The notes below the pieces were generated by a model, which had not been told where the DNA came from, ran no database searches, and was given only the letters and a program-made list of their open reading frames with translations. Made by a program: the position numbers and the translations under genes. This document shows positions 129-63,083 of a stretch of DNA of 64,000 bases, piece after piece (the stretch's first letter is position 1; every line of letters begins with the position of its first letter). The stretch is taken from NCBI GenBank assembly GCA_963843795.1, contig CAWJLW010000006.1, forward strand, positions 434,001 to 498,000, in the 5' to 3' direction. Origin of the DNA: an uncultured bacterium (GTDB lineage Bacteria > Armatimonadota > Abditibacteriia > Abditibacteriales > Abditibacteriaceae).

Positions 129-164
129 AGAAACGCCGCTGCAAGTACTTGCAGCGGCGTTTCT
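129..164. terminator. 36-bp perfect palindrome centred on GCAAGTACTTGC; probable terminator hairpin
   Basis: AGAAACGCCGCTGCAAGT|ACTTGCAGCGGCGTTTCT, 17 nt after the HD-GYP stop. Confidence 0.7.
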
Positions 165-210
165 CATTGACTTTTGAAGCGTATGGTTGAGAGTAAGTGC
201 AGATTGAATT

Positions 211-375
211 GGTGAATGGGTACAAACAGAAATCTTCAATGCTCGCCAACGCGAGCTAAAGGAAAAGCGGCGCGTTTTGTTTCCGATTCGTCTGACACCG
301 TTTGAAACGCTACGCAAATGGAAAGCTTTTGACAGCGATACGGGCTGCGATATGGCGCGCGAAATCCGCAAGTAC
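211..375 (+). pseudogene. Remnant of a TIR-domain gene (C-terminal part of a TIR_2-type domain)
   Basis: Translates GEWVQTEIFNARQRELKEKRRVLFPIRLTPFETLRKWKAFDSDTGCDMAREIRKY. This resembles, from memory of the family, bacterial pentapeptide-repeat/TIR proteins (S.WV..EI..AR.RE..E.RR.LFPIRL...W..FD.DTG.D.AREIREY). In-frame TGA at 205-207 and no start codon at the 5' end. Confidence 0.65.
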
Positions 376-432
376 TTGCAGGGCGCATTTTTTGCATTTA
401 AGCGCGCCGATTAACAAGGGAAGTGGAATATT

Positions 433-1458
433 ATGGGTTTGAAAAAGGCGACACTTTGGGCACTTAGCGGCGCGGCGGCGACGGTTGGAACGATGGTGGT
501 TTTGCAGAAAAAACGTCATTTCGATCTCACCAATCGCGTGGTTCTCATCACCGGCGGCAGTCGGGGTTTCGGTTTACTGTTGGCGCAGGAGTTCGCCAGT
601 CGTGGCGCGCGCGTGGCGATTTGTGCGCGCGATGGCGAAGAGCTGGAACGCGGGCGCAGGTACTTGCAGCAATTTGGTTTGGATGCGCGCGCGTTCGTAT
701 GCGATGTGACGCAAAAGGCGCAAATTGAGCATTTGGTGGAAGAAGTCGAGCGCGAGTTGGGTTCGGTCGAAGTGCTGGTCAATAATGCAGGCGTAATTTC
801 GATGGGGCCGGTCGATGCAATGACCGATGAAGATATGAAAGCGTCGATTGACACCCACATCTGGGCGGCCTGGCACGCTTGCAACGCCGTTTTGCCCGCG
901 ATGCGCGCGCGGGCTAGTGGGCGCATTTTGAATATTTCGTCTATTGGCGGGCGTGTCAGCGTTCCGCATCTCACGCCTTATGCAGTGGGCAAATTCGGCT
1001 TAGCGGGTTTGTCGCAGGGCTTGCGCATTGAATTGGCGCAATACGGTGTTTTAGTGACGACGGCGTTTCCGTTTCCCATGCGCGTCGGTTCGTTTATTAA
1101 CGCGACAATGAAAGGTCAACATCGCAAAGAGTTCGCGCTGGGCCAAATTGTTGATTCTAATCCGCTGCTTTCGCAAAACCCTGAACGCGCGGCGCGCAAT
1201 GTCGTGGAAGCTGTGATTCGCGGCGATTCCTATATCGTGCCCTCGAATCGCGGGCAACTGGCGATTACATTAGCTGCGGTTTTTCCTGGACTGGCACTGG
1301 AAGCGACTTCGCTGCTGGGCCGTTTTATGCCGTCCAAAGATGGACCGGAAAGCATTGGCAGCGCGGGCGTGAAAGGCAAAGACAGCGAATCGGTGTTCGC
1401 ACCTTCGGTTTTAACGGTGCTCAACGACAAAGCCGCGCGCGAGTTGAACGAGCTTTAA
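433..1458 (+). CDS. SDR family NAD(P)-dependent oxidoreductase
   Basis: TGGSRGFG Rossmann motif, NNAG, YxxGK catalytic motif, N-terminal hydrophobic segment. Confidence 0.9.
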   Translation: MGLKKATLWALSGAAATVGTMVVLQKKRHFDLTNRVVLITGGSRGFGLLLAQEFASRGARVAICARDGEELERGRRYLQQFGLDARAFVCDVTQKAQIEHLVEEVERELGSVEVLVNNAGVISMGPVDAMTDEDMKASIDTHIWAAWHACNAVLPAMRARASGRILNISSIGGRVSVPHLTPYAVGKFGLAGLSQGLRIELAQYGVLVTTAFPFPMRVGSFINATMKGQHRKEFALGQIVDSNPLLSQNPERAARNVVEAVIRGDSYIVPSNRGQLAITLAAVFPGLALEATSLLGRFMPSKDGPESIGSAGVKGKDSESVFAPSVLTVLNDKAARELNEL

Positions 1459-1480
1459 ATGCAGATCATGAAAGTCGCAA

Positions 1481-1536
1481 AGTGAAGAGAGAATGGCGCG
1501 CTGCAAGTACTTGCAGCGCGCCATTCTCTCTTCACT
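1481..1536. terminator. 56-bp perfect palindrome between convergent genes; probable bidirectional terminator
   Basis: AGTGAAGAGAGAATGGCGCGCTGCAAGT|ACTTGCAGCGCGCCATTCTCTCTTCACT. Confidence 0.75.
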
Positions 1537-1541
1537 CCCAT

Positions 1542-2087
1542 TTAAAATCTGGTACCCACCATCAGGGCTAACCCGCCGGGATTAACGCCCGCGACGCTGC
1601 CAACGATGTGATATTTGGCTTCCACAAAGAATTGTTTGGGGAATTGATAGCCGACCACACCGTAACCGCCGACGGTAGTTTTGTTTTCGCTTCTAGCACC
1701 GTTCGATGCGCGCACGAAATAGGGGCCAAGGCCAGCGCCGAAATACACGTTGCCGGTCGCGCTTTGCAGCGGGTTGGGCGGCGAAAAATAGCGGCCAATC
1801 GTGACTGGAATCATGCGCAGCTTGCCGCCGTTGCCGCTACTCTGCGAGTAACCGGCGCTCACCAGATATTTGCCCTGACCCAAGTTGGGAATCGCGACAT
1901 CGGCTTCGATGTTGAAAGCAGTTCCGCCCGCCAAAGCTTTGGCATCGCCGGTGCGTTGCAAAATGCCGATTTTGGCACGAACGGGAATGACGCCGGTGCT
2001 TTGGGCGTTTGCGGGCGCGGCCATGCTCCAAACGAGGCCAGAAAGAGCGAGGCAGGTTCCTGCGGTGCGAAAGATAAATTTTGTCAT
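1542..2087 (-). CDS. Small outer-membrane beta-barrel protein
   Basis: Signal peptide (APANA-Q), alternating beta strands (YFGAGLG, GYGVVGYQF, FFVEAKY), C-terminal Phe. Confidence 0.75.
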   Translation of the reverse strand: MTKFIFRTAGTCLALSGLVWSMAAPANAQSTGVIPVRAKIGILQRTGDAKALAGGTAFNIEADVAIPNLGQGKYLVSAGYSQSSGNGGKLRMIPVTIGRYFSPPNPLQSATGNVYFGAGLGPYFVRASNGARSENKTTVGGYGVVGYQFPKQFFVEAKYHIVGSVAGVNPGGLALMVGTRF

Positions 2088-2281
2088 GGCTGTTCTCCAC
2101 AAAAATTGAAAATACTCGACAACGGAATGGCGCGAGTGTAACGATTTGAACGGCCCGAATCTACTTTGAGCAAATTATTCTGGTGACAAATGAAGTTTGG
2201 CCTTTACAGATGCCGAGGTTCTTGATAAGATTTCTCTTCGCGCGCCAGCCAAGACAATTTTCGGAGTGCGTCACCCACAAT

Positions 2282-2354
2282 GGGCCGGTAGCTCAGTTGG
2301 TAGAGCAGGGGACTTTTAATCCCAAGGTCATAGGTTCGATTCCTATCCGGCCTA
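2282..2354 (+). tRNA. tRNA-Lys (TTT)
   Basis: GGGCCGG acceptor stem, AGCTCAGTTGGTAGAGC D arm, CTTTTAA anticodon loop, GGTTCGATTCC T arm. CCA not encoded. Confidence 0.96.
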
Positions 2355-2361
2355 CTTATCG

Positions 2362-2397
2362 AAAACACCCCGCAAGTACTTGCGGGGTGTTTTTTTG
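2362..2397 (+). terminator. Rho-independent terminator of tRNA-Lys with the palindrome as apex
   Basis: AAAACACCCCGCAAGT|ACTTGCGGGGTGTTTT followed by a T run. Confidence 0.8.
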
Positions 2398-2410
2398 TGT
2401 CGCGGCAAGC

Positions 2411-2452
2411 TGTAGCTTGCAGCGTGTAGCTTGCAGCGTGTAGCTTGCAGCG
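2411..2452. repeat. Tandem repeat, 3 x TGTAGCTTGCAGCG (7-bp sub-period)
   Basis: Three exact 14-bp copies read directly. Confidence 0.9.
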
Positions 2453-2539
2453 CGCGCGATTCACGTTTAACAAACTCATTTTCTGTATTTTGCGAAAGGC
2501 TGTGAAAGCCTTCAGCGTGCTTGCTACACTGCTTACGTT

Positions 2540-4166
2540 ATGTTACTTATTGAAAACCTTCGCAAACAATGGGGGCCACAAGTCCTCTTCAAAGACGCCG
2601 AAGCCTCGGTCTATCCGGGCGAGCGCGTTGGATTGGTCGGCCCCAACGGTGCCGGCAAAACAACTTTATTTCGTATTATTCAAGGCACAGATGACGCTGA
2701 TGGCGGCTCTGTCCATATCGACGATTGGGCCACAGTTGGCACCTTGTCGCAAGAATCGCAATGTCGATTAGGTGTGACTGTGCGCGAGGAAATGCTGTCG
2801 GCGTTTCCCGAAGTCGATGAAGCGCGCCAACAAATCGAAGCGCTTAGCGCCAATCTGGGCAACGATCAAAGTTCGTTCGAAAATCGCGAGGCACTGCGCC
2901 AATTATCTAAAGCGCAAACCGAACTCGATATGCAGGAAGCGCACACCGTCGAAGCGCGCATCGGTCGCGTTCTCAGCGGTTTGGGCTTTGGCAACGACGC
3001 GATGGATCGTCTGACCGATGAATTTTCCGGCGGTTGGCAGATGCGCATCGCGATGGCGAAAATTCTGCTGCGCGAACCCGATTTGCTTTTATTGGACGAA
3101 CCGACCAACCATCTCGATAGCGCGGCGATTAAATGGTTATTGAAGTACTTGGAAGATTATCATGGCGCGGTTCTGGTGATTTCGCACGATCCGAAATTCC
3201 TCAACAAAATTGTCAATCGCATCATCGAAGTCGATCAGGGTCAGTTGAACGATTACGCGGGCAACTATTATCAGTATCAGCGCACCAAAGCCGAAAATAT
3301 CGAGCGTCAGCAGGCGGCGTATGATCGCCAACAGCGCGAACTGGAACGTCAGCAGGAATTTATCAACCGTTTCGGAGCCAAAGCAACCAAAGCCTCGCAG
3401 GTGAAAAGCCGCGAAAAAATGCTTGATAAAATCGAACTGGTTGAAGCTCCTATCGCCAACAAGCGCGAAATGATCTTCAAATTCCCTGAAGCTCCCAAAT
3501 CCGCGCTCGACGTTTTGCGTGTCAAAGGTGTCAGCAAAACCTACGATAAGCTTAAAGTTCTGCAGGATATCGACCTCAAAGTCAAACGCGGCGACCGCAT
3601 CGCACTGCTTGGCCCAAATGGCGCTGGCAAAAGTACTTTGCTTCGCATTTTGGCTGGCGTCGAAGCGCCCGATGAGGGCGGTTTTCGCGAGGAAGGGCGC
3701 AATGTACTTATCGGCTATTTCGCACAGCATCAGGCCGAAGCGCTGGATCTAAATCGCAGCGCGTTGGAAGAAGTGCTTTATGGTTTGGATACCGAGCCGG
3801 AACGCGAAGCGCGTGGTTTGCTGGGTCGATTGATGATTCGTGGCGATGAAGTGCACAAGCCGGTGCGCGTTCTCAGCGGTGGCGAACGCAGCCGCGTGGC
3901 GTTGGCCAAGTTCCTGATGCAGCCCGCCAACACGCTTGCTGCTGGACGAGCCGACCAACCATCTCGACCCTGGCAGCCGCGAAGTTTTGCAGGAAGCTGT
4001 GGCAAATTTCGAGGGCACGGTCGTTACGGTGTCGCACGATTTGCCGTTCATTTCGGCTGTCGCGACCGAAGCGTTTCGTTTGGAAGACGGGCGTTTACTA
4101 GAAGAACGCGAATCGCTGAACGAGAACGCCGGACGCAATGGTCAGGGTAAAAAAGGCAAGAAATAA
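2540..4166 (+). CDS. ABC-F family ATP-binding protein (apparent +1 frameshift near 3935)
   Basis: Two ABC domains (GPNGAGKT/S, FSGGWQ, LSGGER, LLDEPTNHLD) and no TM segments. The second LLDEPTNHLD lies in the next frame (ORF 3936-4166). Confidence 0.9.
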
Positions 4167-4168
4167 GC

Positions 4169-4687
4169 GTGGACAAAACCAGCGTGACTGGAGAGATTCA
4201 CACGCGCCAACTGCGCGCCGCCGACATTCCTGTCGTGCGGCGCGTTTTGGCGCGTGCCTTTGGCGAACTGTTCGACTGGACCGAAAGCGTCGAAGAAACC
4301 CTTGCCCGTTGGGATGTGGAAAACGGCGTTCCGGATGTAAACGATGCGATGCAGCATTACATCGGCAATCGCGGCGAATTTCGCGTTTTGGTCGATGGCG
4401 AAACCATCGTCGGCATGGGCGCGGTGCGTCGTTTGAGCGATGAAGTGTGCGAATTGAAGCGAATGTGGTTTTTGCGCGCTTATCGCGGTCGCGGATTGGG
4501 GCGCGCTTTAGCGCTTGAATTGATCCAATGGGCACGCGATAATGGCTACCAAATCATGCGTCTAGATAGCGGTTCGGCGCCCTTATTTGCTCCCGCGCAC
4601 ACTTTATACCGTTCATTGGGATTTAGCGACATCGAGCGCTACAATGAAAACCAATACGCCACTGTTTGGATGGAAAAGATGCTATAA
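4169..4687 (+). CDS. GNAT family N-acetyltransferase
   Basis: CELKRMW...YRGRGLG acetyl-CoA motif, A..LY.SLGF. Confidence 0.88.
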   Translation: MDKTSVTGEIHTRQLRAADIPVVRRVLARAFGELFDWTESVEETLARWDVENGVPDVNDAMQHYIGNRGEFRVLVDGETIVGMGAVRRLSDEVCELKRMWFLRAYRGRGLGRALALELIQWARDNGYQIMRLDSGSAPLFAPAHTLYRSLGFSDIERYNENQYATVWMEKML

Positions 4688-4703
4688 AGGGAATAAATAA
4701 GAC

Positions 4704-5378
4704 ATGGCTTCCGTGATCGTCTTTGACTTAAATGAAACTTTGCTGGATATGAGCGCACTGGACAGTTTCTTTGCGGACAAATTTGGTAACGCGAAAACAC
4801 GCCAAAGCTGGTTTCAAACCTTGGAAAGTTTGATGTTGACAACTGTTGTCGTGCATCGAAACACACCGTTTAGCGAATTGATGCTCGCGGCGTTAAATAT
4901 GACGGCGCAGCGCGAAAGAATTGAGTTATACGCTGCCGATGAGAACGAATTATCGGAGCAGATGAAACGTCTCGCGCCGTATGGCGAAGTTGAAAGTGGT
5001 TTGCAAATGTTGCACGACGGTGGTTTTCGTTTGGTGGTTTTGACCAACGGGGCCCAAAAAGCTGCGCACGAACAAGTCGAATTCGCCAGATTGACCAATT
5101 ACTTTGAAAAAGTGCTGTCTGCGCAAGACACCGGAATGCTGAAACCAGGACGCGTGACTTACCAGTACGCGGCGCGCGAACTGGGCGTCGAATGCGCTGA
5201 TATTCGTTTGGTCGCGGCGCATCCGTGGGATATAACCGGTGCCGCTGCTGCCGGTTGTGCAACCGGATTTATTGCGCGACCGGGCAAATTTGCCGATCCC
5301 AGCGGCACGCCACCCGAAATCGAAGCGCGCGATTTGAACGATATGGCAGAGCAAATTCTCGATAAAGACAAACCCTAA
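4704..5378 (+). CDS. Haloacid dehalogenase type II (HAD superfamily)
   Basis: VFDLNETLLD, LTNG, KP, LVAAHPWDI.GA motifs. Confidence 0.88.
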   Translation: MASVIVFDLNETLLDMSALDSFFADKFGNAKTRQSWFQTLESLMLTTVVVHRNTPFSELMLAALNMTAQRERIELYAADENELSEQMKRLAPYGEVESGLQMLHDGGFRLVVLTNGAQKAAHEQVEFARLTNYFEKVLSAQDTGMLKPGRVTYQYAARELGVECADIRLVAAHPWDITGAAAAGCATGFIARPGKFADPSGTPPEIEARDLNDMAEQILDKDKP

Positions 5379-5744
5379 TGAAATGAGAATTTCCTGGCCT
5401 TGACACTGATTTGTATCTGGCAAGTACTTGCCTGCAGTTTTCGAGGCGATTTTTCAATTATCTGACTTTACCGTTTCCTCAGCGGCCACCGCATTCGCCC
5501 GCCGAACGCGCATCATCGGTTTGTGAAACGCTAAAAGGTGGGGAAATCGGCTTGTTCTTCTTGGCATCGCAGAATTTGGTGACACAAAAATAGTTTCCTT
5601 CGCTCCAACAATCCGCAAAATGTCAGCGCATTTGAGTTCCAACAGTCAGGTGGTACGTTGATTTTTTGCCAGATAAAATTTTCACTCAGCGGTATTAATT
5701 TTCAGGCGCTGCAAGTACTTGCAAGGCACTAAATTTCAATTTTT

Positions 5745-6113
5745 ATGAATATCACGACACAGGTCAAGCGTTTAGATCACATTCATATTTGCATTCCGCA
5801 CGGCAAAGAAGACGAGGCGCGCGAGTGGTACACGAGCGTGCTGGGCTTGCGCGAAACCGAGCGTCCGGCTTCGCTGGGGCCGGGCGGTTTGTGGCTCTTG
5901 ATGGGCGATATTTGCGTGCATCTCGGAATCAGCAATGATGTACCACATCGTAATCCGCACGCGGCGTTTGAAGTGGAAGATTTGGAAACGCTGCGCACAC
6001 ACCTGCAAAATCACGGCGTCGAAATCGGCCACGAACCGGATATTCCCGGCGTTAATCGCTTCGCTTTCCGCGACCCTTTCGGCAATAAGTTCGAGTTTCT
6101 CGAACGCGATTAA
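5745..6113 (+). CDS. VOC/glyoxalase family protein
   Basis: LDHIHI, HAAFEV, FRDPFGNKFEF. Confidence 0.88.
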   Translation: MNITTQVKRLDHIHICIPHGKEDEAREWYTSVLGLRETERPASLGPGGLWLLMGDICVHLGISNDVPHRNPHAAFEVEDLETLRTHLQNHGVEIGHEPDIPGVNRFAFRDPFGNKFEFLERD

Positions 6114-6152
6114 TCAGGCGTATTGTGCGCCGCAAGTACTTGCAAATCCACT

Positions 6153-9152
6153 ATGGAACTACGATTACAAACCTCGTGGCCAAAATGCGCCGTCGCAATT
6201 CTCACGATAGCAACTCCAGCGCTGGCGCAACCTACGCCGGTGCAAACCCTGAACGATTACAACGAACCGTTTCTGTTCACGTATGGAACTTGGGAGAAAA
6301 AGCCTACTGTTCAAAATGGCGTGGCGCTGCTGAATGGAATTACCAACGCGGGCGGCGGCGGGCATCTGCTGCCACTCGATTTGAGCGGCAAAACTGAACT
6401 TTCGCTCGCGGTGCGTTTGAAAATTGGGCCTAACAATCAAGCGCAAACGCTGCGAGTTTTGTTGTTGGATAATCAAGAGCGCAGCGCGATCTGGAATTTT
6501 TCGCTCGATGGTGTACCCAAAGGCCAAATGCAACTGCTGACGCCGCAAGAAGGCGCGACTTTGGCCACACCTAATGACACCGGCAAGCCGAATCAAGCGC
6601 CCGATTGGAGCAAAATCGCCAACTTGCAATTGCAGGGCGATTGGAATGGTAACAAGCCGCTCGATGTCGAAGTCGATGCCGTGGTTTTGGTGCAGCCCGA
6701 TGCCAGCATGATTGCACAACGACAGCAGCGCGTGGCGCGTTTGGCACAGGAAGCCAGTGCGAAAAAGCAAGCTCAGGACGCGCTCAAAGCCAAGTATGCG
6801 CAACGCACGCAGCTTTCGCCGCGCGTCGTCAATGTCGCGCCGGTCGCGCCCGCTGTGCTGGCGCTGACCATTGAAAGTGGCCATATTTCACCCGGTGCGC
6901 TCGAACCTTATGTGCCCAAAGACGGCGATAAGACAACCGAAAAAAAACGCGAAGATGGCAAATTAGAAAGCGTGCAGCTGGTGCGCAATGGCCAAACGCT
7001 GGGCTTTTTGCTGCCAACCTGGGGGCCAAAACGCGAATGGTTGCAGCGCGGCGAGACTTTTGAAGGCGAACCGTTACTGGAATTTGTCGCCGATGACGCG
7101 GCCAACTTCAGCGTAATTTCGCCCGATGACGCCAATTACAAAACCGCGCAAAAGCCAGTTTGGATAGGGCGCAAAACTACGCCGATCAAATGGTCAACCA
7201 GCGCCAACGCGTTTGAAATGCGCCACAGCATTTATCTTCAATTGCCTTTTGCTTTGTCGTCCGGCAAAAAATATACGGTGAATTTGGGCGAATTGAACAC
7301 GCAAAAAGCGACGGTTGAATTTAGCGACGACGCGAGCCAAATGCGTTCGGAAGCGGTTCATGTCAATCAAATTGGCTATCGGCCCGACGATCCGGCCAAG
7401 CGCGCTTTCGTTTCGTGTTGGATGGGAACCGGTGGCAATTTAACGCTGCCCGCGACTTTGAAATTTTCGCTCGTCGATGAGAAAAGCGGCAAAGCGGTTT
7501 TTAGCGGGCAAAGCGACAATCATTGGCCCGCCAGCAAGCCGGAATTGATGCAGAATGACGAGAATTTCAATGGTACCGAAGTGGCTCGCCTGGATTTTTC
7601 AGGTTTCAAGACGCCGGGCCGTTATCGTGTCGTGGTCGAAGGCATTGGCAGTTCGTATCCGTTTGAAATCGGGCCGGATGTCTGGCAGCGCGCCTTCACC
7701 GTTCAGATGCGCGGCCTGCTGAATAATCGCAGCGGCATTAAATTGGGGCCGCCTTTCACGACTTTTCAGAAGCCGCCAGATATGGTGCCTGCTGAGGGTT
7801 ACGAAGTGTTGAAAAGCCATTATCGCGCGGTCGAGAAGGGCGGCGAAAATTACGCGGCCATCAAAGCTGGGAGTACCGGCGAAAAAATGATGCAGGCGTG
7901 GGGTGGCTATCACGATGCGGGCGACTGGAATCCGCGCCGCGTTACACACATGAAAGTCAATATGGCCGCTCTGGAATTGTTCGATCTGTTCCCCAAGTAC
8001 TTTGGGGCGCTGAAGTTGAACCTTCCGACGACGCCCGGTTTGAATCCGAACGTGCCGGACGTTTTGAGCGAAGCGGTCTGGGAATTCGGGACGTTTCAGC
8101 GTTTGCAGCAGGCCGATGGCGGCGTTGGTTACGGCATCGAAACCGGCGATGGCGATCCGTTGCCGGGCGAGGTTTCGTGGCTGCAAAGTATGCCCGCGTT
8201 CGTGCTAAACGGCGATTACAGCAGCAGTTGGTATTACGCTGCGGTCGGCGCGCGTCTTTCGCGCGTGTTGCAGCCCTATGATGCCAAAGCCGCGCAGGGA
8301 ATTCGCGACAGCGCTTTGCGCGCTTTTAATTTTGCCGAAGCCGATTTCGCGCGCGACAAAGCTGCGGGAGAAACTGACAAGCGTGATAATACGTGGGAAG
8401 CGATCGACACGCGGAATCTGGCCGCCATCGAACTGTATGGGGCGACGCGCGAGCAGAAGTATCACAACATTTTCCTGCAAGACACGGTTTTAAAAGACAC
8501 TAAACCCGATTTGTTCGCGTGGACGAAGCACGTCCAGCGCGACCAGGCGTTTGCTTATGCGCGCTTGCCCAAAGGTTTGGGCGATGAAACGCTGAAGCAG
8601 AAAGCGATTGCGGCGACCCAAGAAATGGCCGAGCGCGCTTTAAAATATGCCTCGAATAATGCGTTTAATTTAACGACGCCGGACAAAGGCAAGCCGCAGT
8701 TCATCGGCTTTTACACCACGCCCGATGCCTTTGACCTCACGCGCGCGCATTTTCTGACTGGCGACAGCAAATATCTGGCGGGCGCGGTGCAAGCGACGCA
8801 GTTCCAAAGCGGCGCGAATCCGAACAACATCGTGTATACGTCTGGCCTGGGCGCTAATCCGATCAAAAACCCGTTTCATCTGGATAGCCGCTTGACCGGA
8901 CAAGATGCGCCTGCGGGTTTGACGCCGTATGGCAATATCGATTTCAAGCGTTGGAACAATAACGGCATCACATGGCCGATTACGTGGTTTTTATCGAAAA
9001 ACACCGTTCCCGATCCCTATAATTGGCCCACAGCCGAAGCGTATTGGGATTTAGGGCAATGGCCGATGCTGGAAGAATTCACCGTCGATGCGTGGTCGCC
9101 GAATGTGCAGGTTTGGGGCTATCTGGCGGCACGCGAACCATTGAAACCGTGA
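6153..9152 (+). CDS. Secreted GH9 glycoside hydrolase with Ig-like (CelD_N) module and N-terminal CBM-like domain
   Basis: Signal peptide, VHVNQIGY Ig module, GGYHDAGD GH9 motif, G.NP...Y.SGLG. Confidence 0.82.
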   Translation: MELRLQTSWPKCAVAILTIATPALAQPTPVQTLNDYNEPFLFTYGTWEKKPTVQNGVALLNGITNAGGGGHLLPLDLSGKTELSLAVRLKIGPNNQAQTLRVLLLDNQERSAIWNFSLDGVPKGQMQLLTPQEGATLATPNDTGKPNQAPDWSKIANLQLQGDWNGNKPLDVEVDAVVLVQPDASMIAQRQQRVARLAQEASAKKQAQDALKAKYAQRTQLSPRVVNVAPVAPAVLALTIESGHISPGALEPYVPKDGDKTTEKKREDGKLESVQLVRNGQTLGFLLPTWGPKREWLQRGETFEGEPLLEFVADDAANFSVISPDDANYKTAQKPVWIGRKTTPIKWSTSANAFEMRHSIYLQLPFALSSGKKYTVNLGELNTQKATVEFSDDASQMRSEAVHVNQIGYRPDDPAKRAFVSCWMGTGGNLTLPATLKFSLVDEKSGKAVFSGQSDNHWPASKPELMQNDENFNGTEVARLDFSGFKTPGRYRVVVEGIGSSYPFEIGPDVWQRAFTVQMRGLLNNRSGIKLGPPFTTFQKPPDMVPAEGYEVLKSHYRAVEKGGENYAAIKAGSTGEKMMQAWGGYHDAGDWNPRRVTHMKVNMAALELFDLFPKYFGALKLNLPTTPGLNPNVPDVLSEAVWEFGTFQRLQQADGGVGYGIETGDGDPLPGEVSWLQSMPAFVLNGDYSSSWYYAAVGARLSRVLQPYDAKAAQGIRDSALRAFNFAEADFARDKAAGETDKRDNTWEAIDTRNLAAIELYGATREQKYHNIFLQDTVLKDTKPDLFAWTKHVQRDQAFAYARLPKGLGDETLKQKAIAATQEMAERALKYASNNAFNLTTPDKGKPQFIGFYTTPDAFDLTRAHFLTGDSKYLAGAVQATQFQSGANPNNIVYTSGLGANPIKNPFHLDSRLTGQDAPAGLTPYGNIDFKRWNNNGITWPITWFLSKNTVPDPYNWPTAEAYWDLGQWPMLEEFTVDAWSPNVQVWGYLAAREPLKP

Positions 9153-9158
9153 GGCAAA

Positions 9159-9182
9159 GGCTCTGCAAGTACTTGCAGAGCC
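9159..9182. terminator. Palindrome-centred hairpin between convergent GH9 and nfi
   Basis: GGCTCTGCAAGT|ACTTGCAGAGCC. Confidence 0.6.
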
Positions 9183-9187
9183 AAATT

Positions 9188-9880: not shown

Positions 9881-9962
9881 GAGGCTGGAACTCTCCCTCC
9901 CGTGCGCTTTCTGATTATCCCAATCGCGCGAATAATTGTCATTTTCGCTATAATTTTCTTCG

Positions 9963-11453: not shown

Positions 11454-11463
11454 AGATGTCGAA

Positions 11464-52158: not shown

Positions 52159-52180
52159 AATTGCTCCAACCGCAACCAAC

Positions 52181-52221
52181 CGAAAACGTCCGTATCGCAA
52201 AAAGCGATACGGACGTTTTCG
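52181..52221 (+). terminator. Rho-independent terminator hairpin
   Basis: CGAAAACGTCCGTATCGC-AAAAA-GCGATACGGACGTTTTCG. Confidence 0.7.
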
Positions 52222-52333
52222 ATTTGCTCCCCATGTTTTTGAAAAATTTGCCTTGACAGCTTACGGCAAGTACTTGCTACAACCGTTTCCTGCAAATGCT
52301 TCGCGCTTTAATGCATCAAGCGCTCAATTTCCT

Positions 52334-53071: not shown

Positions 53072-53080
53072 AACAGATGA

Positions 53081-53115
53081 GAAAAGCGCGCGGCAAGTAC
53101 TTGCAGCGCGCTTTC
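53081..53115. terminator. Palindrome-centred hairpin between convergent genes
   Basis: GAAAAGCGCGCGGCAAGTACTTGCAGCGCGCTTTC. Confidence 0.6.
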
Positions 53116-53130
53116 GCGGTCATTAGCTTC

Positions 53131-54345: not shown

Positions 54346-54473
54346 AAAATTTCACACCAAAATGCCCTGCAAATGAAAACGCAAGTACTTGCAGGGCCCA
54401 TCCACTTTGAATTTCAATAAGACACAAGTTTAGCGTGCGCGCCACAACCGCGTGCACGTTAAAATATCTGGTG

Positions 54474-55712: not shown

Positions 55713-55753
55713 ACGCTGCGAAACACCAGTTGCAAGTACTTGCAAAACACTTT

Positions 55754-56197
55754 ATGGCTGCTAAAAAAGACGATCCACATTTTAAACTGCAACGCAAAGC
55801 GCAATCGCGTGGCATCGGTCGCGAACCGCAGAGCGACGACGGCTACAAGCGTCACGTTTTGTTTTGTGCCGGCTCGAGTTGCTGTTCTTACGATGTCGGC
55901 AAGCCGATTCTCAAGTACTTGAACAAGCGTTTGAAAGATTTGGAAAAAAGCGGCGTTGCGGTTTATCGCACGCCAGTCGATTGTTTATCGGTTTGTCGCG
56001 GAGGCCCATTAATGGTGATTTATCCCGAAGGCACCTGGTATGGCGAACTCACTGAAGAAAAATGTGAGCGCATTATCGAAAATCACTTATTGGGTGGAAA
56101 GCCGGTTGAAGAACTCGCGTTTGCCAGCAATCCGCTGGTTGAAAACGGTACGGTCTTAAAACCGATTAGCGTCGAGAAGAAGCCAAAAAAGAAATAA
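55754..56197 (+). CDS. Thioredoxin-like [2Fe-2S] ferredoxin
   Basis: HVLFC...CC, CLSVC..GP..VIYPEGTWY, HL.GGKPV. Confidence 0.88.
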   Translation: MAAKKDDPHFKLQRKAQSRGIGREPQSDDGYKRHVLFCAGSSCCSYDVGKPILKYLNKRLKDLEKSGVAVYRTPVDCLSVCRGGPLMVIYPEGTWYGELTEEKCERIIENHLLGGKPVEELAFASNPLVENGTVLKPISVEKKPKKK

Positions 56198-56208
56198 CCC
56201 ACAAACAC

Positions 56209-56242
56209 AAAAGCGCCCTACAAGTACTTGCAGGGCGCTTTT
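56209..56242. terminator. Hairpin with a palindrome variant between convergent ferredoxin and cysN
   Basis: AAAAGCGCCCTACAAGTACTTGCAGGGCGCTTTT. Confidence 0.65.
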
Positions 56243-56258
56243 GGCTTTACGATTTAAT

Positions 56259-57536
56259 TTATAAAATCATGCCCGCGCCAACTGTCACATTGGTCGCTTC
56301 ATCGATCAAAATCAGGCTGCCGGTGTCGCGGTTTTGGCGATATGAATCGACGCAGAGCGGCGCGGTAGTTTTTAGTTGCAGACGCGCGATGTCGTTGAGA
56401 CCAATTTCACTCGGTTGGTCGATGCGCTCCATTGTGGTCATGTCGATTTTGTAATCGACACTTTTCACCACGCAGCGCGCATCGCGCGTGGTGTGTTTCA
56501 GCGCGTATTTGCCATTAATTTGCAGCGGAACTTCATCCAGCCAGCAGACCATAATTTCAATTTCGCGCGTGACTTTGGGCGCGCAATCACCGGATACAAT
56601 CATGTCGCCGCGCGAAATGTCGATATCATCGCTCAAGCGCAGCGTGGTGCTAAGTGGCGCAAAAGCGCTTTCCAGCGGGCCATCGGCGCTTTCAATCGAA
56701 GCGATAGTGGAAGTTTGACCGCCGGGAAGTACTTGCACAGCGTCGCCTTTGCGAAAAACGCCGCCCGCGATGCGCCCGGCGTAGCCACGATAATCGTGAA
56801 ATTCGTCGCTCATCGGACGAATCACATATTGCACCGGCAAGCGCGGCTGTGTGCGATTGAAATCGTTATCAATCGGCAAAGTTTCCAACAAGCCCAATAG
56901 CGTCGCGCCGCCATACCATGGCATATTCTGCGAACGATCGACGACGTTGTCGCCTTTCAGGGCAGAAATCGGCAGAAAATGCAAATCGCAATCGCCGTCG
57001 ATTTTCTTCAGTGCATCGCGGAAATCGCTTTGAATCTGCTCGAAACGCTCCTGCTCCCAATCGACCAAATCCATTTTATTGATGCAGACCAGCAAATGCG
57101 GAATGCCCAAAAGCGAAGCGATAAACGCATGGCGCCGCGTTTGTTCGACCACGCCGTTGCGCGCATCAATCAGGATAATCGCGGCGTTGGCGGTGCTGGC
57201 GCCGGTCACCATGTTGCGCGTGTATTGGATATGTCCGGGCGTGTCGGCGATGATGAATTTGCGGCGCGGCGTGGCGAAATAACGATACGCCACGTCAATC
57301 GTGATGCCTTGCTCGCGCTCGGCGCGCAAGCCATCGGTCAGCAACGCAAGATTAACTTGCTCATCGCCGCGCCGTTCGCTGGTCGCGACGATTTGTTCCA
57401 TCTGGTCTTCAAAAATCGACTTGCTGTCATACAGCAAACGCCCGATCAATGTACTTTTGCCATCATCAACGCTGCCCGCTGTGGTAAAGCGTAGCAGTTC
57501 CATATCGAGATAGCCCTGGGTAGAAAATTCACTCAT
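56259..57536 (-). CDS. cysN: Sulfate adenylyltransferase subunit 1
   Basis: GSVDDGKSTLIGRLL, EREQGITIDVAYRYF, DTPGH.QYTRNM, NKMD. Confidence 0.95.
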   Translation of the reverse strand: MSEFSTQGYLDMELLRFTTAGSVDDGKSTLIGRLLYDSKSIFEDQMEQIVATSERRGDEQVNLALLTDGLRAEREQGITIDVAYRYFATPRRKFIIADTPGHIQYTRNMVTGASTANAAIILIDARNGVVEQTRRHAFIASLLGIPHLLVCINKMDLVDWEQERFEQIQSDFRDALKKIDGDCDLHFLPISALKGDNVVDRSQNMPWYGGATLLGLLETLPIDNDFNRTQPRLPVQYVIRPMSDEFHDYRGYAGRIAGGVFRKGDAVQVLPGGQTSTIASIESADGPLESAFAPLSTTLRLSDDIDISRGDMIVSGDCAPKVTREIEIMVCWLDEVPLQINGKYALKHTTRDARCVVKSVDYKIDMTTMERIDQPSEIGLNDIARLQLKTTAPLCVDSYRQNRDTGSLILIDEATNVTVGAGMIL

Positions 57537-57545
57537 AACTTTGGA

Positions 57546-57580
57546 GAGATGAGAGGGAAGAGATGAGACGTGAGATGGAA
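57546..57580. repeat. Degenerate heptamer tandem repeat between cysD and cysN
   Basis: GAGATGA GAGGGAA GAGATGA GACGTGA GATGGAA. Confidence 0.65.
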
Positions 57581-57665
57581 AACCGTGCTGCAAGTACTTG
57601 CACTCAGAAAACTGAACTTCAGTGCAAACTTTCTTCTTTCTCCCCTCTTAAATCTTCCCTCTCGA

Positions 57666-58562
57666 TTAAAAATAGCCAGCTTTTTTGCGGTCTTCCATGG
57701 CGGCTTCACTGCGTTTGTCGTCGGCGCGACCGCCGCGCTCGGTTGTGCGCGCACTCGCCACTTCTTGAATAATATCTTCGACCGAACTTGCGGGCGATTC
57801 GACCGCACCCGTGCAAGTTGCATCGCCGACGGTACGAAAACGCACCTGCATATCGACCAGATGTTCATCGGCGCGCGGCACTAAAAATTCGGTCTGAGCG
57901 AGCCACATTCCATCGCGCTGAAAAACCGGACGTTGGTGCGTGAAATACAAGGTTGGCAATTCGATGTTTTCCTGCAAAATGTATTGCCACACGTCCATTT
58001 CCGTCCAGTTGGAAATCGGAAAAACGCGAAAATGTTCGCCGATATTTTTGCGGCCATTGAACAAATTCCACAATTCGGGCCGTTGATTTTTCGGATCCCA
58101 CTGCGAAAAATCGTCTCGATGCGAAAAGAAACGTTCCTTAGCGCGCGCTTTTTCTTCGTCGCGCCGCGCACCGCCGATGGCGCAGTCGAATCCCAATTCT
58201 TCGATGGCATCGACTAAAGTCACGGTTTGCAGCGCATTACGGCTGGCGCGCGGTCCGGTTTCTTCGCGCACGCGCCCCGCATCAATTGAATCTTGCACAC
58301 TTCTGACAATCAATTTTGCGCCCAACTCTTTTACCCATTGGTCGCGATATTCAATGGTTTCGGTGAAGTTGTGACCCGTATCGATATGCATCAAGGGAAA
58401 GGGAATTTTCGCGGGCCAGAAGGCTTTGCGCGCCAAATGGGACACCACAATTGAATCTTTGCCGCCCGAAAACAAGAGGACGGGACGCTCGAATTGTGCG
58501 GCAACTTCGCGCAGGACGAAAATGCTTTCGCTTTCCAGTTCTTTTAAATGACTTAGTTTCAT
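57666..58562 (-). CDS. cysD: Sulfate adenylyltransferase subunit 2
   Basis: LFSGGKDS, GGARRDEEKARAKER, WDPKNQRPELW, C-terminal ME.RK..GYF. Confidence 0.96.
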   Translation of the reverse strand: MKLSHLKELESESIFVLREVAAQFERPVLLFSGGKDSIVVSHLARKAFWPAKIPFPLMHIDTGHNFTETIEYRDQWVKELGAKLIVRSVQDSIDAGRVREETGPRASRNALQTVTLVDAIEELGFDCAIGGARRDEEKARAKERFFSHRDDFSQWDPKNQRPELWNLFNGRKNIGEHFRVFPISNWTEMDVWQYILQENIELPTLYFTHQRPVFQRDGMWLAQTEFLVPRADEHLVDMQVRFRTVGDATCTGAVESPASSVEDIIQEVASARTTERGGRADDKRSEAAMEDRKKAGYF

Positions 58563-58688
58563 AAGCTCGTTTACCAGCTTTTATTCAACGCGCGAATCGT
58601 CTGCGCGTTCATTTGTCTACCTCGCAGGTAGATTTTTAGCCGAACGCTTATTTTACTTCAATTCGCCGCCTCGCGTAAACTGCAATTT

Positions 58689-59663
58689 ATGTTGCGCGAC
58701 CACTTCAATCGGACTTTCGGCACTTTGCGCATCAGCGTCACCGACCGCTGCAATTTTCGCTGCGCCTATTGCATGCCCGCGCACGGCGTCGAACTGGCTT
58801 CCCGCAGCGAAATCCTCACGTTCGAAGAAATCGCCCGAATCGTTCGCGTCGGCGCGCAATTAGGTTTGCGCGATATTCGCTTGACTGGCGGCGAGCCAAC
58901 GGTCAGGCGCGATTTGCCGCGACTTATTGCACTGTTGCGCGAAATTCCCCAAATCCGCGACATCGCTATGACAACTAATGCCGCGCTTTTGTCCGATTTG
59001 GCCGCGCCTTTGAAAAATGCGGGATTGAATCGCCTAAACATTTCGCTCGACACTTTGCAGCGCGAACGCGCGCACAAGTTAGCGCGGCGCGATTTGCTGC
59101 CGCAAGTACTTGCAGGCATCAATGCCGCGCAAATTTTCGCTCCCCTGAAATTCAACGCCGTCGTTTTGCGCAGTATCAACGAAAATGAATTGTGCGATTT
59201 GGTCGAATTTGCCCACGCGCACGGCGGCACGATGCGTTTTATCGAATGGATGCCGATGGGACAAACCGCGTTCGAAGCGCAAAATCAACTGGTCACAATT
59301 CAAGAAATGCGAGAAATTCTCTCCTCACGTTTCGATTTACAGCCGCTGCACAATGCGCCCTCAGAGCCGGCGCGTTTGTGGCAATGCGCGCGCAGTGGCG
59401 CACAAGTTGGCTTTATCGGTTCGATGAGCGAACATTTTTGCGACAGTTGCAACCGAATGCGCCTGACAGCGCAAGGCGGTCTGCGTCCGTGTCTGCACCA
59501 AAATGCCGAAATTGATGCGCGGGGAATTTTGCGCAATGGCGGCGATGATAAAGACATCGCTCAATGCTTCGCGCGCGCGGCAGCGTTGAAATGGGCGGGG
59601 CATCACATGAATAATGTAATTCCGTTGTATTCGAGCAAAGATATGGTTTCAATCGGTGGTTGA
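58689..59663 (+). CDS. moaA: GTP 3',8-cyclase MoaA
   Basis: LRISVTDRCNFRC.YC, LTGGEP, FC..CNR.RLT..G....CL, C-terminal IGG. Confidence 0.95.
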   Translation: MLRDHFNRTFGTLRISVTDRCNFRCAYCMPAHGVELASRSEILTFEEIARIVRVGAQLGLRDIRLTGGEPTVRRDLPRLIALLREIPQIRDIAMTTNAALLSDLAAPLKNAGLNRLNISLDTLQRERAHKLARRDLLPQVLAGINAAQIFAPLKFNAVVLRSINENELCDLVEFAHAHGGTMRFIEWMPMGQTAFEAQNQLVTIQEMREILSSRFDLQPLHNAPSEPARLWQCARSGAQVGFIGSMSEHFCDSCNRMRLTAQGGLRPCLHQNAEIDARGILRNGGDDKDIAQCFARAAALKWAGHHMNNVIPLYSSKDMVSIGG

Positions 59664-59678
59664 AAGGCGCTGCAAATA

Positions 59679-60185
59679 ATGGCAACACAAGCTATGAACG
59701 AAAATCCCAACGCGACGCAAATGATTGATGTGGGAGGTAAACAAATCACGCAGCGCGAAGCCATCGCACAGGGCACGATTCAAATGACCGCACAAACCGC
59801 GCGTTTGGTGCAGAGCGCGACTTTGCCCAAAGGCAATGCCATCGAAACTGCGCGCGTGGCGGCAATTATGGCCGCCAAACGCACACCGGATATTATCCCG
59901 CTTTGTCATCCGCTTTTAATCGCGAGCGTGAAATGCGAATTCGAATTTGACGAGAATTTGGAAGCGCAAAACGACGCGGCAAGTACTTGCATCACGGCGC
60001 GCGTGCGTGTGAAATGCAGCGGACAAACTGGAGTGGAAATGGAAGCACTCACCGCAGTCAGCGCCGCGTTGTTAACGATTTACGACATGACCAAAGGCGT
60101 CGATGAAACGCTGGAAATTCTCAACGTGCGTTTGTTAGAAAAGCGCGGCGGTCGGAGCGGCGTGTGGACGCGTTCCGACGATTGA
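59679..60185 (+). CDS. moaC: Cyclic pyranopterin monophosphate synthase MoaC
   Basis: MIDV..K, AAKRT..IIPLCHP, TGVEMEALT, IYDM.K, K.GG.SG. Confidence 0.95.
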   Translation: MATQAMNENPNATQMIDVGGKQITQREAIAQGTIQMTAQTARLVQSATLPKGNAIETARVAAIMAAKRTPDIIPLCHPLLIASVKCEFEFDENLEAQNDAASTCITARVRVKCSGQTGVEMEALTAVSAALLTIYDMTKGVDETLEILNVRLLEKRGGRSGVWTRSDD

Positions 60186-60207
60186 AAGCCGCAACTTTTC
60201 GAGTTCA

Positions 60208-62316
60208 TTACAACAGTTGCGCCAATTCCTCAGCCGAAGTTACCGGCGCTTGGCACGCGAAATTCTGGCATACATACGCCGTCGCGCGCCCGTCGCGCGG
60301 CGTCATTTCGCGCACGAAAGGCATCAAATTTCCCAACATATCACGATTGTCTTCATGCAATTTAATGATCGACGCGAACGGTAAAAATTTTTGGTAAATA
60401 GTGCGCTGCAATTCTCGAAAATCTTCACTGTCGCGTTCGCCAACTAAAACGATGTGTTGGGGCGCGTTATGAAATTGCAGCGCGGCGCACAGCAGCGCAG
60501 GCATCGCGGAGGGAATCGAATGCAAGCGTTCGCCAAATAATGGGAGCGACTTTTCGGCGCGTTGGCGTGCAAGGTCATCGTCTAAAAGTTGCGCCAAACG
60601 CACATCGTTTTGCGCGGAAATGGCATGCGATGACGGCTCGGCGCCGTCGTAAGATTCTTTGTCGCGTACTAAAACGTGCGGGTCGTTGGGCGCGCTGAAA
60701 TAACCGCCATTTTGCTCGTCCCAGAACAGGCGCGCTTGCGTTTGTGCAAGTACTTGCGCCCATTCCAGCCAGCGCGTTTGTCCGCTCGCTTCCCACAAAT
60801 CCAATAATCCTCGCACCAGAAAAGCGTAATCATCGGCAAAGCCACCAATCGGCGACGCGCCATCTTTATAATGACGCTGCAAAGTTCCCGCTTCAGCATC
60901 GAATAATTCGTTTTGAATAAATTCCGCTGCGCGCGAAGCCGCTTGCAAGTACCTGCTATCATTCAAAATCGCGCCCGCTTGCGCGAAAGCTGAAATCATC
61001 AAACCATTCCAGGCTGTGATGATTTTCTCATCGCGATGCGGGCGCGGACGCTGAGTGCGAATCTCGAAGAGCTTGTCGCGACATTCCGTTAAAATTATGT
61101 GCGCCTGCTGAACTGTCCACGAAAATTGAGGCGCGATTTTTTCCAAACTTTCGCGCTCGAACAAGATATTTTGACCGCGAAATTCGCCGTGAGGGTCACC
61201 TTCGCGCGGCGCATTACCTTTCGCCTGCACCTGATAAAAGGCTTTGAAAAGTGGCGCAGCGTCGCCCAGCATTCTGTCAATTTCAGCTTCTGTCCACACG
61301 TAAAACGCACCCTCAACTTTCTGCGGAGCGCTTTCTTCTGGCAACGAATCGGCGTCTTCGCCTGCGAAAAATCCGCCGCTTTGGTGCGTCAAATCGCGCA
61401 TCACATAATCGAGCGTGGAACGCACCATGTTGTAAAAATACTGGTCGCCGCTGATTTGTCCGATTTCTAGTAAAGAAACGACCAGTTGAGCTTGGTCGTA
61501 AAGCATTTTTTCGAAATGCGAAACGACCCATTGCGCATCGACGCTGTAACGATGAAAACCTCCACCCAGATGATCGCGCATGCCACCACGACACATCGCT
61601 TCCAGCGTGCGTTGCGACATTTCAATGGCGTTTTTCTCGCCAATGGCAGCGTGCGCGCGGTGCAGGAAATCGTGCGTTACCGGACGCGGGAATTTGGGTG
61701 CCTCACCGAAACCGCCCCATTTCGGATCGAACTCTGAAGCGAACTGTTGCAGTGCGCCACTGAAAACTGCTTCCCACTGCACCGCATTTTCTTCGTTTTC
61801 GAGGGATTTACGTGCGGCGTTTTTTAGAAATTGTCCGGCATTTTCGGCGATTTTGTTGATATTATCGCGGTCGTCGTCCCACGATTTCGCGATAGATTGC
61901 AGCAGCGTCGGAAAGCCGGGACGACCATACGCATCGCGCGGCGGAAAATAAGTGCCGCCAAAAAACGGTTCGAGTGCGGGCGTGAGAAAAACCGACATCG
62001 GCCAGCCGCCCTGTCCGTTGTTGGTAGCTTGCACAAAGGTCATGTAAACGCGGTCGATGTCGGGTCGCTCTTCGCGGTCGACTTTAATGCAGATGAAATT
62101 GGCGTTCATCAATTGCGCGATCGAATCGTTTTCAAAAGATTCGCGCTCCATTACATGACACCAGTGACACGTCGAATAACCAATAGACAAAAATATTGGT
62201 TTGTTCTGGCTGCGCGCTAATTCAATGGAAGCATCGTTCCATTCGTGCCATTGCACCGGATTATGCGCGTGTTGTAGCAGATACGGGCTTTTGGCGTGAA
62301 TGAGTTCGTTGTTCAT
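60208..62316 (-). CDS. YyaL/SSP411-like thioredoxin-domain protein (DUF255)
   Basis: [47 protein letters not shown]. Confidence 0.92.
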
Positions 62317-62321
62317 AATAT

Positions 62322-63083
62322 TTACGATGCATTTTTCAAGTTCAGATGCTGAATGAAGAATTGCAATGAATCTTGAATATGCAAATCCCAGTACTCCCAA
62401 GTGTGCGCGCCAGGGTTTTCCTGATACTCGTGCGCGATTTTCTGCTCTTGCAAGTACTTGCAGAAAGCGCGATTGTCTTCGATAAGAAAATCATCGACGC
62501 CGCAATCTATGCGCAGAGCCGGTAGTTGTTCGCGGTCGATTTTTTCGGCTAGCGCGTATAAATCATCTGCGCCGCCGCGCGGCTTCGACCCTAAAATTTG
62601 AGCAAATTCGAGATTCAAATTTTCGTCGTCACGCAAATTATGACCAAAGCCCAAAGCGCCGGAATGCGAAACTGCTGCGCAGAACATCGTGGGATATTTG
62701 AGCGCGAATTTCATCGCCCCATAGCCGCCCATTGAAAGGCCGGCCACGACGCGCCCGCGCCGGTCGGGAACCGTATTGAATGCGTTATCGACAAAATTGA
62801 TCACGTCGCGGGCGATGTAAGTTTCGTATTGGCTTTTGGAAGCGTCTTTGGCGTCGCAATAAAAGCCGCGCCCTCCGTCGGGCATTACAACAATGAGCGG
62901 CAAATCGCGCACGTATTTTTCGATGTGACTGAGACGCATCCATGCGCTATGATTGTCGCTGAGGCCGTGTAAAAGATACAAAACCGGAAACGGGCCAACT
63001 TGGTTTTCGGGCCAGATAACCGATAAATTCATCATCTTTTGCAGTGCGTTCTGATTGTTCATCTGTAAAATTGCGCTCGCCAT
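62322..63083 (-). CDS. Alpha/beta hydrolase esterase (tributyrin/acetyl esterase-like)
   Basis: YLLHGL, GLSMGG nucleophile elbow, DCG.DD, G.H.W.YW. Confidence 0.88.

Follow-up and report, generated by a model that had tools for sequence, protein, structure and literature searches.

A perfect 12-bp palindrome, GCAAGTACTTGC, was found in 45 exact copies between positions 141 and 62461 of a 64,000-bp stretch of DNA (hereafter the window; GenBank assembly GCA_963843795.1, contig CAWJLW010000006.1, positions 434,001 to 498,000) from an uncultured bacterium of family Abditibacteriaceae, phylum Armatimonadota, that is, about once per 1.4 kb. This 12-mer is one dialect of a GTAC-centred system and represents a selected or driven system of the kind formed by highly iterated palindromes (HIPs) and DNA uptake sequences (DUS), with a new sequence and in a new phylum. 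A first-pass annotation, made from the letters of the window, had proposed a genuine genome-wide HIP/DUS-like system maintained in trans, and this was supported here.

The annotated count of 45 was exact and no copy appeared in 100 dinucleotide shuffles of the window. The dozen or so near-copies mentioned along with it resolved into ten with one mismatch and four with two, so that sites with at most one mismatch totalled 55 against a shuffle mean of 0.12. The extended consensus reads AAAGCGCGCT, the 12-mer, then AGCGCGCTTT. About ten copies had been placed inside genes, and the classes obtained here were 10 genic, one gene-edge and 34 intergenic copies. The accompanying statement that most spacers bear a copy was roughly true: of spacers of at least 20 bp, one was present in 41-68 % of tandem and convergent and in 15-52 % of divergent ones.

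The source genome (G000; 4.30 Mb in 11 contigs, 92 % complete) contained 2,567 exact copies, and all 11 contigs bore some. The genome-wide comparison with Markov and codon models that the annotation had called for revealed a strong enrichment: an order-5 Markov model predicted 7.4 copies with the motif masked and 610 with the motif unmasked, while synonymous codon re-draws gave 3-6 genic copies against 757 observed. Over-representation exceeded 16-fold, with copies both within and between genes, as is expected of a HIP. Copies were distributed over 1,786 intergenic, 757 genic, 19 gene-edge and five contig-end sites, numbers which are approximate per class because our own gene caller (3,564 genes) was used. 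Constraint was about equal at all 12 positions, any single-mismatch word being found 0-68 times. On the main contig, copy density was flat, without polarity and without bias between the inferred origin and terminus; the latter displayed 367 copies per 600 kb against 387 and 388 elsewhere, hence no depletion. The two longest gaps (26 kb each) were both islands rich in insertion sequences (IS), the remaining long gaps coincided with very long genes or carbohydrate-enzyme clusters, and the virB region was devoid of copies.

An assembly or adapter artefact was ruled out, as the same 12-mer was encountered in two other organisms from public metagenomes (loci among L189-L268; ~70 % nucleotide identity; 61-69 % GC). 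Absence from close relatives had been named as a sign of artefact: the exact 12-mer was indeed limited to three copies or fewer in each of 60 relatives searched, yet kin bore other dialects of the same core, so that this criterion would have been misleading. A public-run contig spanned the copy at 50813 without any difference, which is weak support since it may stem from the data of the source study.

Genic copies mostly arose in register by base substitution, altering residues, as judged from alignments. They were read as Q-V-L-A (498), K-Y-L (144) or A-S-T-C (115). QVLA was the commonest tetrapeptide of the proteome (569 occurrences, the next reaching 234), and 506 of these 569 were encoded by motif letters with the rare codon GTA. 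The moaA copy at 59102 lay in register across 24 aligned orthologues, and the congener G001 displayed its own dialect at the same codons, encoding T-K-V-L-C. Compared with genomes lacking this dialect, 26 of 30 and 80 of 99 genic sites aligned without gaps. Insertion-like sites numbered seven out of 99 against 33 out of 1,840 control windows, a higher rate, so that a minority of genic copies may be insertions. Amino-acid identity at three motif codons was 0.15-0.29 against 0.61 overall.

Once present, sites were conserved between genomes beyond control words. In a g1-like lineage of ~65 % protein identity, AGTACT was retained in place at 31/54, 29/59 and 5/9 sites in three kin, against 16/343, 26/399 and 7/64 for control hexamers, chosen without matching their codon constraint. 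In the alignment of the two metagenomic kin, which covered 60 kb at 83 % identity (sets mgM and mgR come from a single organism and were counted once), AGTACT ranked first of 941 six-mers, being conserved at 114 of 142 sites (counted from both sides) against a six-mer median of 0.44. Near-matches of the motif also occurred at orthologous sites.

Copies avoided each other at distances below one kilobase. The pair correlation g(r) was 0.51-0.69 below 1 kb and ~1 beyond in the source genome; in G009 (780 kb of sequence used) and G012 (400 kb) it rose from ~0.2 in the first 200-bp bin to ~0.4 in the second, and in G006 (360 kb) it was 0.1-0.6 up to 1 kb. AGTACT was the most self-avoiding among 707 and among 776 six-mers of comparable abundance, and two motif words headed the self-avoidance ranking of 500 seven-mers of the source genome. 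Genes compensated for spacers: short genes carried 17 copies per Mb when both flanks bore the motif, 148 when one did and 279 when none did, a trend that faded in genes above 2.5 kb. Spacers of at least 40 bp held ~0.6 copies regardless of length. Per-gene copy counts, being slightly over-dispersed, spoke against such spacing. No periodicity was detected at the kilobase scale (the strongest Fourier power was 6.4, the mean maximum under the null 6.5, by a test for 10-90 kb periods simpler than the one published for HIP1).

The flanks displayed a helical wave. A/T and G/C content oscillated symmetrically about the palindrome with a best period of 10.6 bp up to ~75 bp, and weakly up to 100 bp in the source genome. 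On either side of the centre, AA/TT peaks were located at distances of ~14, 25, 35, 46, 56 and 67 bp, a spacing that resembles that of nucleosomal DNA. The GC amplitude (0.040) was reached by none of 300 shuffles. Amplitude and phase were alike in genes, spacers, all three frames, and third as well as first-second codon positions; the wave survived where an arm had no first A/T tract (0.028 against 0.007 in the control), was shared by one-mismatch copies genome-wide, and did not appear at control words or at GTAC sites outside the motif. Neighbouring copies 17-110 bp apart lay on the same side of the helix (n=144, R=0.36, p ~1e-8). Elsewhere the wave was clear and shorter in G009 (0/200 shuffles), significant in one metagenomic kin (0/300) and marginal in the other (4/300) and in G001 (10/300); no significant wave was obtained for G012, G006 or a 91-site subset. 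Such symmetry suggests that the reader of the motif bends DNA symmetrically about the palindrome. A codon-bias screen for an abundant small reader protein gave no convincing candidate, and EVE and MutS occurred in motif-rich and motif-poor genomes alike.

Highly iterated GTAC-centred motifs were present in seven of the 27 family genomes compared (numbered G000, G001 and so on; L numbers designate loci) and took four forms. The congener G001 displayed AAGTACTT 2,725 times, mostly as CAAAGTACTTTG. G009, G012, G015 and G019 displayed GAGTACTC 2,650-4,077 times, in three of them as TCGAGTACTCGA. G006 had a 22-bp palindrome (L072, L457-L476), centred on AT or AA and present ~0.5 times per kb, in which two GTAC lie 18 bp apart; half of it was matched 759 times. 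The two public-metagenome organisms carried a looser CAAGTACTTG form. Among 301 genomes of the phylum, AGTACT exceeded 750 per Mb in five family members only and reached at most ~240 per Mb elsewhere. Genera g2 and g5 (17 genomes) held 1-126 copies; motif-poor status was assigned from targeted counts and samples of 3-65 kb, by which an unrelated motif could be missed. Motif-rich genera g1 and g6 were not sisters in a four-protein tree. Source-genome sites were shared at 7/48 positions in G009, 0/22 in G012 and 0/29 in G006; with so few sites in common with genus g6, repeated gain and ancient origin with turnover are both possible. AGTACT was almost erased in G005, G026, G022, G008 and G011 (1-5 copies in 4-6 Mb) and also in families f11 and f34. 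Among motif-poor relatives, repeats of other, non-GTAC kinds were noticed in G007 (L061-L062) and G016 (L070), of CAGCCACG type, and in G017 (L074), of GGGTGCAGCGCC type.

The source genome encoded a single match to N6/N4 methyltransferases at G000:C6:2517368-2518135, with a DPPY motif; no C5 methyltransferase was found in this 92 % complete genome. GTAC is likely its target, as the annotation had supposed from the letters of the motif. Among motif-poor family genomes holding the enzyme, GTAC stood at 0-0.45 of expectation, against 0.73-0.87 in three enzyme-free genomes. In pooled verrucomicrobial loci with homologues, it was the most depleted four-mer (675 against 1,212 expected), as in three single homologue loci, and it ranked second in Acidobacteria and fifth in Chlorobia, these comparisons being made without enzyme-free controls. 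The gene was intact in 20 of the 27 family genomes, broken in two and not found in five, and was found in none of 275 phylum genomes outside the family. As to the proposed correlation between motif and methyltransferase, the gene was intact in 7/7 motif-rich genomes, but also in 13/20 motif-poor ones. The enzyme could be necessary for motif richness but is not sufficient. It had no conserved neighbour gene; its closest solved relatives were M.RsrI, M.MboIIA and CcrM, Atlas giving the family only, and phage methyltransferase matches were all below 60 % (best ~32 %), offering no target to borrow. The G020 enzyme (L080) did not group with its own genus and fell beside its G000 and G001 counterparts, with weak to moderate support, which points to a possible transfer.

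Any explanation must jointly account for a benefit sensitive to neighbours over ~1 kb, a symmetric bend, tolerance of residue changes, fast dialect change and patchy loss. The best reading, tentatively held and rated somewhat below an even chance, is motif drive of the kind that maintains uptake sequences. Under it, the 12-mer would be a chromosome-wide DNA tag, written mostly by base substitution and kept at ~1 per 1-2 kb. A two-fold symmetric protein would grip the palindrome and fold the DNA, the most likely setting being natural transformation at the step where DNA enters, and the tag would spread through the genome by biased uptake and recombination, as DUS and uptake signal sequences (USS) do. 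The orphan methyltransferase might mark GTAC as self. One tag per fragment would suffice, which would produce the 0.5-1 kb exclusion. An altered flank preference of the reader would lead to rewriting of the genome to a new dialect, a change of specificity costing little under uptake drive, and the purge in sister lineages would follow if this pathway were biased against GTAC.

Uptake drive is favoured because of DUS/USS-like density (~1 per kb), saturation, accepted coding cost and site persistence; because dialects share a core and are patchily present on the tree, like DUS dialects (PMC3630211, in part); and because IS-rich islands and the virB region lack copies. Neisseriaceae DUS and Pasteurellaceae USS likewise display ~1 copy per kb, dialects with a fixed core, coding-frame bias, re-use as terminator hairpins, even spread and A/T-rich flanks (PMC3630211 and PMC7811141, each in part), and the available text of both gives uptake drive as a precedent for density, dialects, terminator re-use and even spread. 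[quoted passage not shown] The source genome encoded ComEC, ComEA, a pilB/pilT/pilC/pilD/pilin locus, and DprA-like and ComF-like proteins, and this competence machinery was counted for uptake.

Several points weigh against it. No uptake receptor was found among the genes examined, no search aimed at the ComP family having been made. ComEC was present in 30/31 genomes of the class and ComEA in 5/5 tested, motif-poor ones included, so that competence genes do not discriminate. DUS and USS are non-palindromic, the DUS core being read by a minor pilin of ComP type, in contrast to the perfect 12-bp palindrome. The full USS spans only 31 bp (PMC7811141, in part) while the two-sided wave extends over ~75 bp, a length that would better suit a supercoiled or wrapped intracellular complex. 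The pilC gene was frameshifted in this assembly (L487:13725-14960), where frame changes affected nine of 135 orthologues tested; this frameshift may therefore be a read error. GTAC as the target of the methyltransferase was deduced from depletion, and it was also scarce where the enzyme was not found (1 of 23 in G016, 22 of 64 in G002), just as AGTACT was nearly absent from the two other families (f11 and f34), which lack this methyltransferase. As to exclusion, copies inside a single gene were not spaced beyond chance, the test of near against far gene halves was not significant (128 against 149), and compensatory turnover between the metagenomic kin was not seen (5/22 against 0.19 expected).

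A possible, if rather unlikely, alternative is a nucleoid landmark, in which an abundant dimeric protein on the 12-mer and its phased A/T tracts would fix, every 1-2 kb, the tip of a supercoiled loop or, in a variant, a ~150-bp wrap, with one site per loop maintained by selection. The extent and symmetry of the wave, its uniformity over genes, spacers, frames and codon positions, its independence from the first A/T tract, its absence at control words and the common helical face of neighbours within 110 bp all argue for it, as does its recurrence in G009 and one metagenomic kin and, more weakly, in the second kin and G001. Phased A/T tracts were reported in plectoneme loops (PMC4132750, in part) and a nucleoid role was proposed for HIP1 by Xu et al. 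(PMC5861425, in part). However, G009 displayed a short wave, the 91-site subset, G012 and G006 none that reached significance, and kilobase-scale periodicity was lacking. No histone fold was detected with two Pfam models (PF00808 in 0/31 genomes, PF09123 in 0/5), which a divergent fold could escape, and HU and YbaB/EbfC were present irrespective of motif richness, with no motif-linked pattern seen in the HU alignment. An essential scaffold is moreover hard to reconcile with switching dialects and with 20 of 27 family genomes in which the counts and samples examined revealed no such motif; why sister lineages purge GTAC would be left unexplained. Compared with uptake drive, a nucleoid landmark accounts better for the long wave and less well for a distribution that is patchy and shifting.

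A bolder claim, which we regard as doubtful, is that the motif constitutes, in a bacterium where no histone was detected, a nucleosome-sized (~150 bp) positioning code, with a strict methylatable palindrome as dyad and phased bends on both sides, repeated every 1-2 kb and written even in coding sequence. As part of the same claim, the code would be read by an undescribed sequence-specific folding protein whose specificity changed no fewer than four times within the family, and the pathway reading GTAC would also purge it in sister lineages.

Strand discrimination is improbable. Here hemimethylated GTAC would direct mismatch repair or another post-replication step requiring a site within ~1 kb. 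The methylatable palindromic core, even spacing with a reach of ~1 kb, lack of polarity and of origin/terminus bias, presence of MutS and a MutL-like gene, and intact methyltransferase in all seven motif-rich genomes are in agreement with this, but MutH was not found in 5/5 genomes. Substitution density between the two kin was flat (0.15-0.16) from 50 to 800 bp around shared sites, four-fold-site GC was flat from 100 bp to 1.5 kb, and one-mismatch copies broke GTAC about as often as the flanks.

Strong gyrase sites, the 12-mer serving as cleavage segment and the wave as wrap of the C-terminal domain, were seriously weighed and rejected on flank phase; we consider them very improbable. The E. 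coli gyrase motif is also symmetric over 120-150 bp with a 10-11 bp period (PMC6379681), similar in length and period to the wave seen here, and with GTAC as the four-base stagger the three central preferences (-4G/+8C, -2A/+6T, +1G/+4C; PMC12324340) are satisfied; the source genome encoded a single type IIA topoisomerase. However, flank GC ran in anti-phase to the dyad-centred E. coli motif (r=-0.46; +0.42 only at a 5-bp shift; PMC6379681, Table DS10), the strict 12-bp core contrasts with a degenerate one and has at -3 and -1 the bases least favoured in that table, and other dialects miss -4G or -2A.

Hairpin arms called for a separate reading, in which the motif would be a mobile hairpin like repetitive extragenic palindromes (REPs) or merely a standardised terminator. 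Perfect arms of at least 8 bp accompanied 486 of 1,786 spacer copies, namely 185/296 in convergent, 279/1,226 in tandem and 22/264 in divergent spacers, and only 7/757 genic ones. Concentrated in spacers and scarce in genes, arms are best read as a secondary use of a subset of copies as predicted terminator hairpins. Thirteen exact head-to-tail duplications of the 12-mer (e.g. G000:C6 373245, 425362, 741191, 2705917), and seven more with one extra base, were mostly located within perfect terminator-like arms and probably arose by template switching. A Y1 transposase gene similar to REP-associated tyrosine transposases (RAYTs) was present (L001:1090-2670; G000:C6 ~751,600-753,200). It was flanked by inverted pairs of an unrelated hairpin repeat starting with GTAG, a 14-letter piece of which occurred 15 times in the genome. 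No motif cluster marked a cognate gene in the source genome, and no small Ssn-like GIY-YIG gene was found, both GIY-YIG matches lying within long frames.

The arms, the duplications, the RAYT gene and the excess of insertion-like genic sites speak for a REP-like or terminator origin. It is nevertheless already contradicted for the core, and we hold it highly unlikely except as an account of the arms, as G012 was nearly armless yet displayed the same mutual exclusion and most genic sites aligned without gaps. REP/RAYT and NTS/Ssn systems resemble the 12-mer in being intergenic, forming hairpins and reaching hundreds to thousands of copies (PMC11893778, in part), but the 12-mer is also genic in register, unclustered and flanks no cognate gene. 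REP identity was therefore rejected, the motif not being RAYT-flanking nor spread mainly by insertion. For the same reasons, an HUH/RAYT nuclease as maker, one of the factors named in the annotation, found no support: the sole RAYT has REPs of its own and genic copies are mostly not insertions.

Methyltransferase with biased repair had been suggested as well; as the sole neutral cause it was not supported, copies being self-avoiding and conserved. In its best-known form, Elhai's HIP1 model, methyl-directed repair would convert near-matches in a functionless mutational ratchet, and although copies arise in place, near-matches occur at orthologous sites and an orphan methyltransferase co-occurs, this is scarcely credible and is already contradicted by sub-kilobase mutual exclusion, since a local process can neither sense neighbours up to 1 kb away nor shape flanks up to 75 bp, and the enzyme was intact in 13/20 motif-poor genomes.

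HIP1 (GCGATCGC) and alternate HIPs (PMC4390886, PMC5861425 and the available text of PMC13756078) are palindromes that occur 0.5-1 times per kb both within and between genes, are conserved from one genome to another, vary by lineage and have a presumed orphan-methyltransferase site at their centre. The present system differs in its GTAC core instead of GATC/CGATCG, in sequence and phylum, in a single candidate m6A enzyme with no C5 enzyme found, in a length of 8-22 bp rather than 5-8, in the lack of long-range periodicity and in purging of the core by sister lineages. Neither sub-kilobase exclusion nor such a long helical flank wave was encountered in the literature examined, that on HIP1 included. 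The SlmA site GTGAGTACTCAC (PMC3020112, in part) is also a dimer-bound 12-bp palindrome centred on AGTACT, and its inner 8 bp equal the G012 dialect. SlmA-binding sites avoid promoters; the 12-mer does not, and it is present in thousands of copies with no terminus depletion, being neither confined to nor excluded from the terminus as SlmA- or matS-type macrodomain signals are. The system is neither HIP1 nor REP, and is a candidate DUS. No description of the 12-mer or family palindrome was found in the literature searched, although subscription journals, methylome databases or supplements could hold one; the main text of the Elhai paper contained neither GTAC nor AGTACT.

To our knowledge, what highly iterated palindromes do has been debated for three decades, and only two families are known to possess proven uptake sequences. 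A single family in which some genomes amplify and others purge one GTAC core, with four dialects and no fewer than two separate clades, provides a natural experiment which could reveal the reader through gene presence and co-varying residues. Exclusion distance and phased flanks constitute quantitative predictions applicable to HIP1, DUS and USS, and could separate uptake drive from chromosome architecture.

Features of the window are listed below; one-mismatch copies are likely decaying or arising sites.

Copies of the 12-bp palindrome and associated features in the window (positions are those of the window)
Feature	Position	Strand	Remark
Copy with 12-bp perfect arms	129..164		Terminator-like hairpin
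Copy with 22-bp perfect arms	1481..1536		Between convergent genes; predicted two-way terminator
Copy with 10-bp arms	2362..2393		Directly 3' of tRNA-Lys (2282-2354)
Genic copy, K-Y-L frame	12625..12636	-	
Copy with 13-bp arms and A/T runs	15046..15083		RNA fold: 18-bp stem, 4-nt loop, -30.3 kcal/mol
Pair of copies, 41 bp apart	20643..20706		Four helical turns; second copy with 11-bp arms
Copy with 13-bp arms	23628..23665		3' of threonine ammonia-lyase gene
Copy with 10-bp arms	32357..32388		Directly 3' of tRNA-Gly (32280-32352)
Three genic copies (32457, 32706, 33240), Q-V-L-A frame	32457..33251	-	Armless; ORF 32390-33904
Copy with 20-bp arms	37029..37080		Between convergent genes
Pair of copies, 62 bp apart	42593..42666		Six helical turns; without long arms
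Pair of copies, 29 bp apart	45162..45202		About three helical turns; upstream of mreB
Genic copy in moaA	59102..59113	+	Encodes P-Q-V-L-A
Genic copy, A-S-T-C frame	59979..59990	+	G001 dialect at aligned position
Other genic copies, K-Y-L frame	368, 17959, 62450		
Other genic copy, Q-V-L-A frame	60746		
One-mismatch copies (10)	656, 16901, 24548, 41651, 46373, 47798, 56220, 56725, 60945, 63206		Span 656..63217

Most six-base palindromes of the source genome were strongly depleted (0.17-0.4 of expectation), AGTACT being amplified instead; GATC and CTAG stood at 0.47 and CGATCG at 0.20. Six viral loci with a 16-mer held one copy each, probably by chance. In the 16S rRNA gene (G000:C6 ~24,430), a variable stem contained a near-match that differs from the motif by two additional bases at its centre, which is probably coincidental. 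Rfam searches of the window retrieved three tRNAs and nothing else. A putA-like gene (15095-18419) was apparently split over several frames, for which read errors are likely. Finally, a 14-bp unit was repeated in three perfect tandem copies at 2411-2452, 3' of tRNA-Lys and its motif hairpin.

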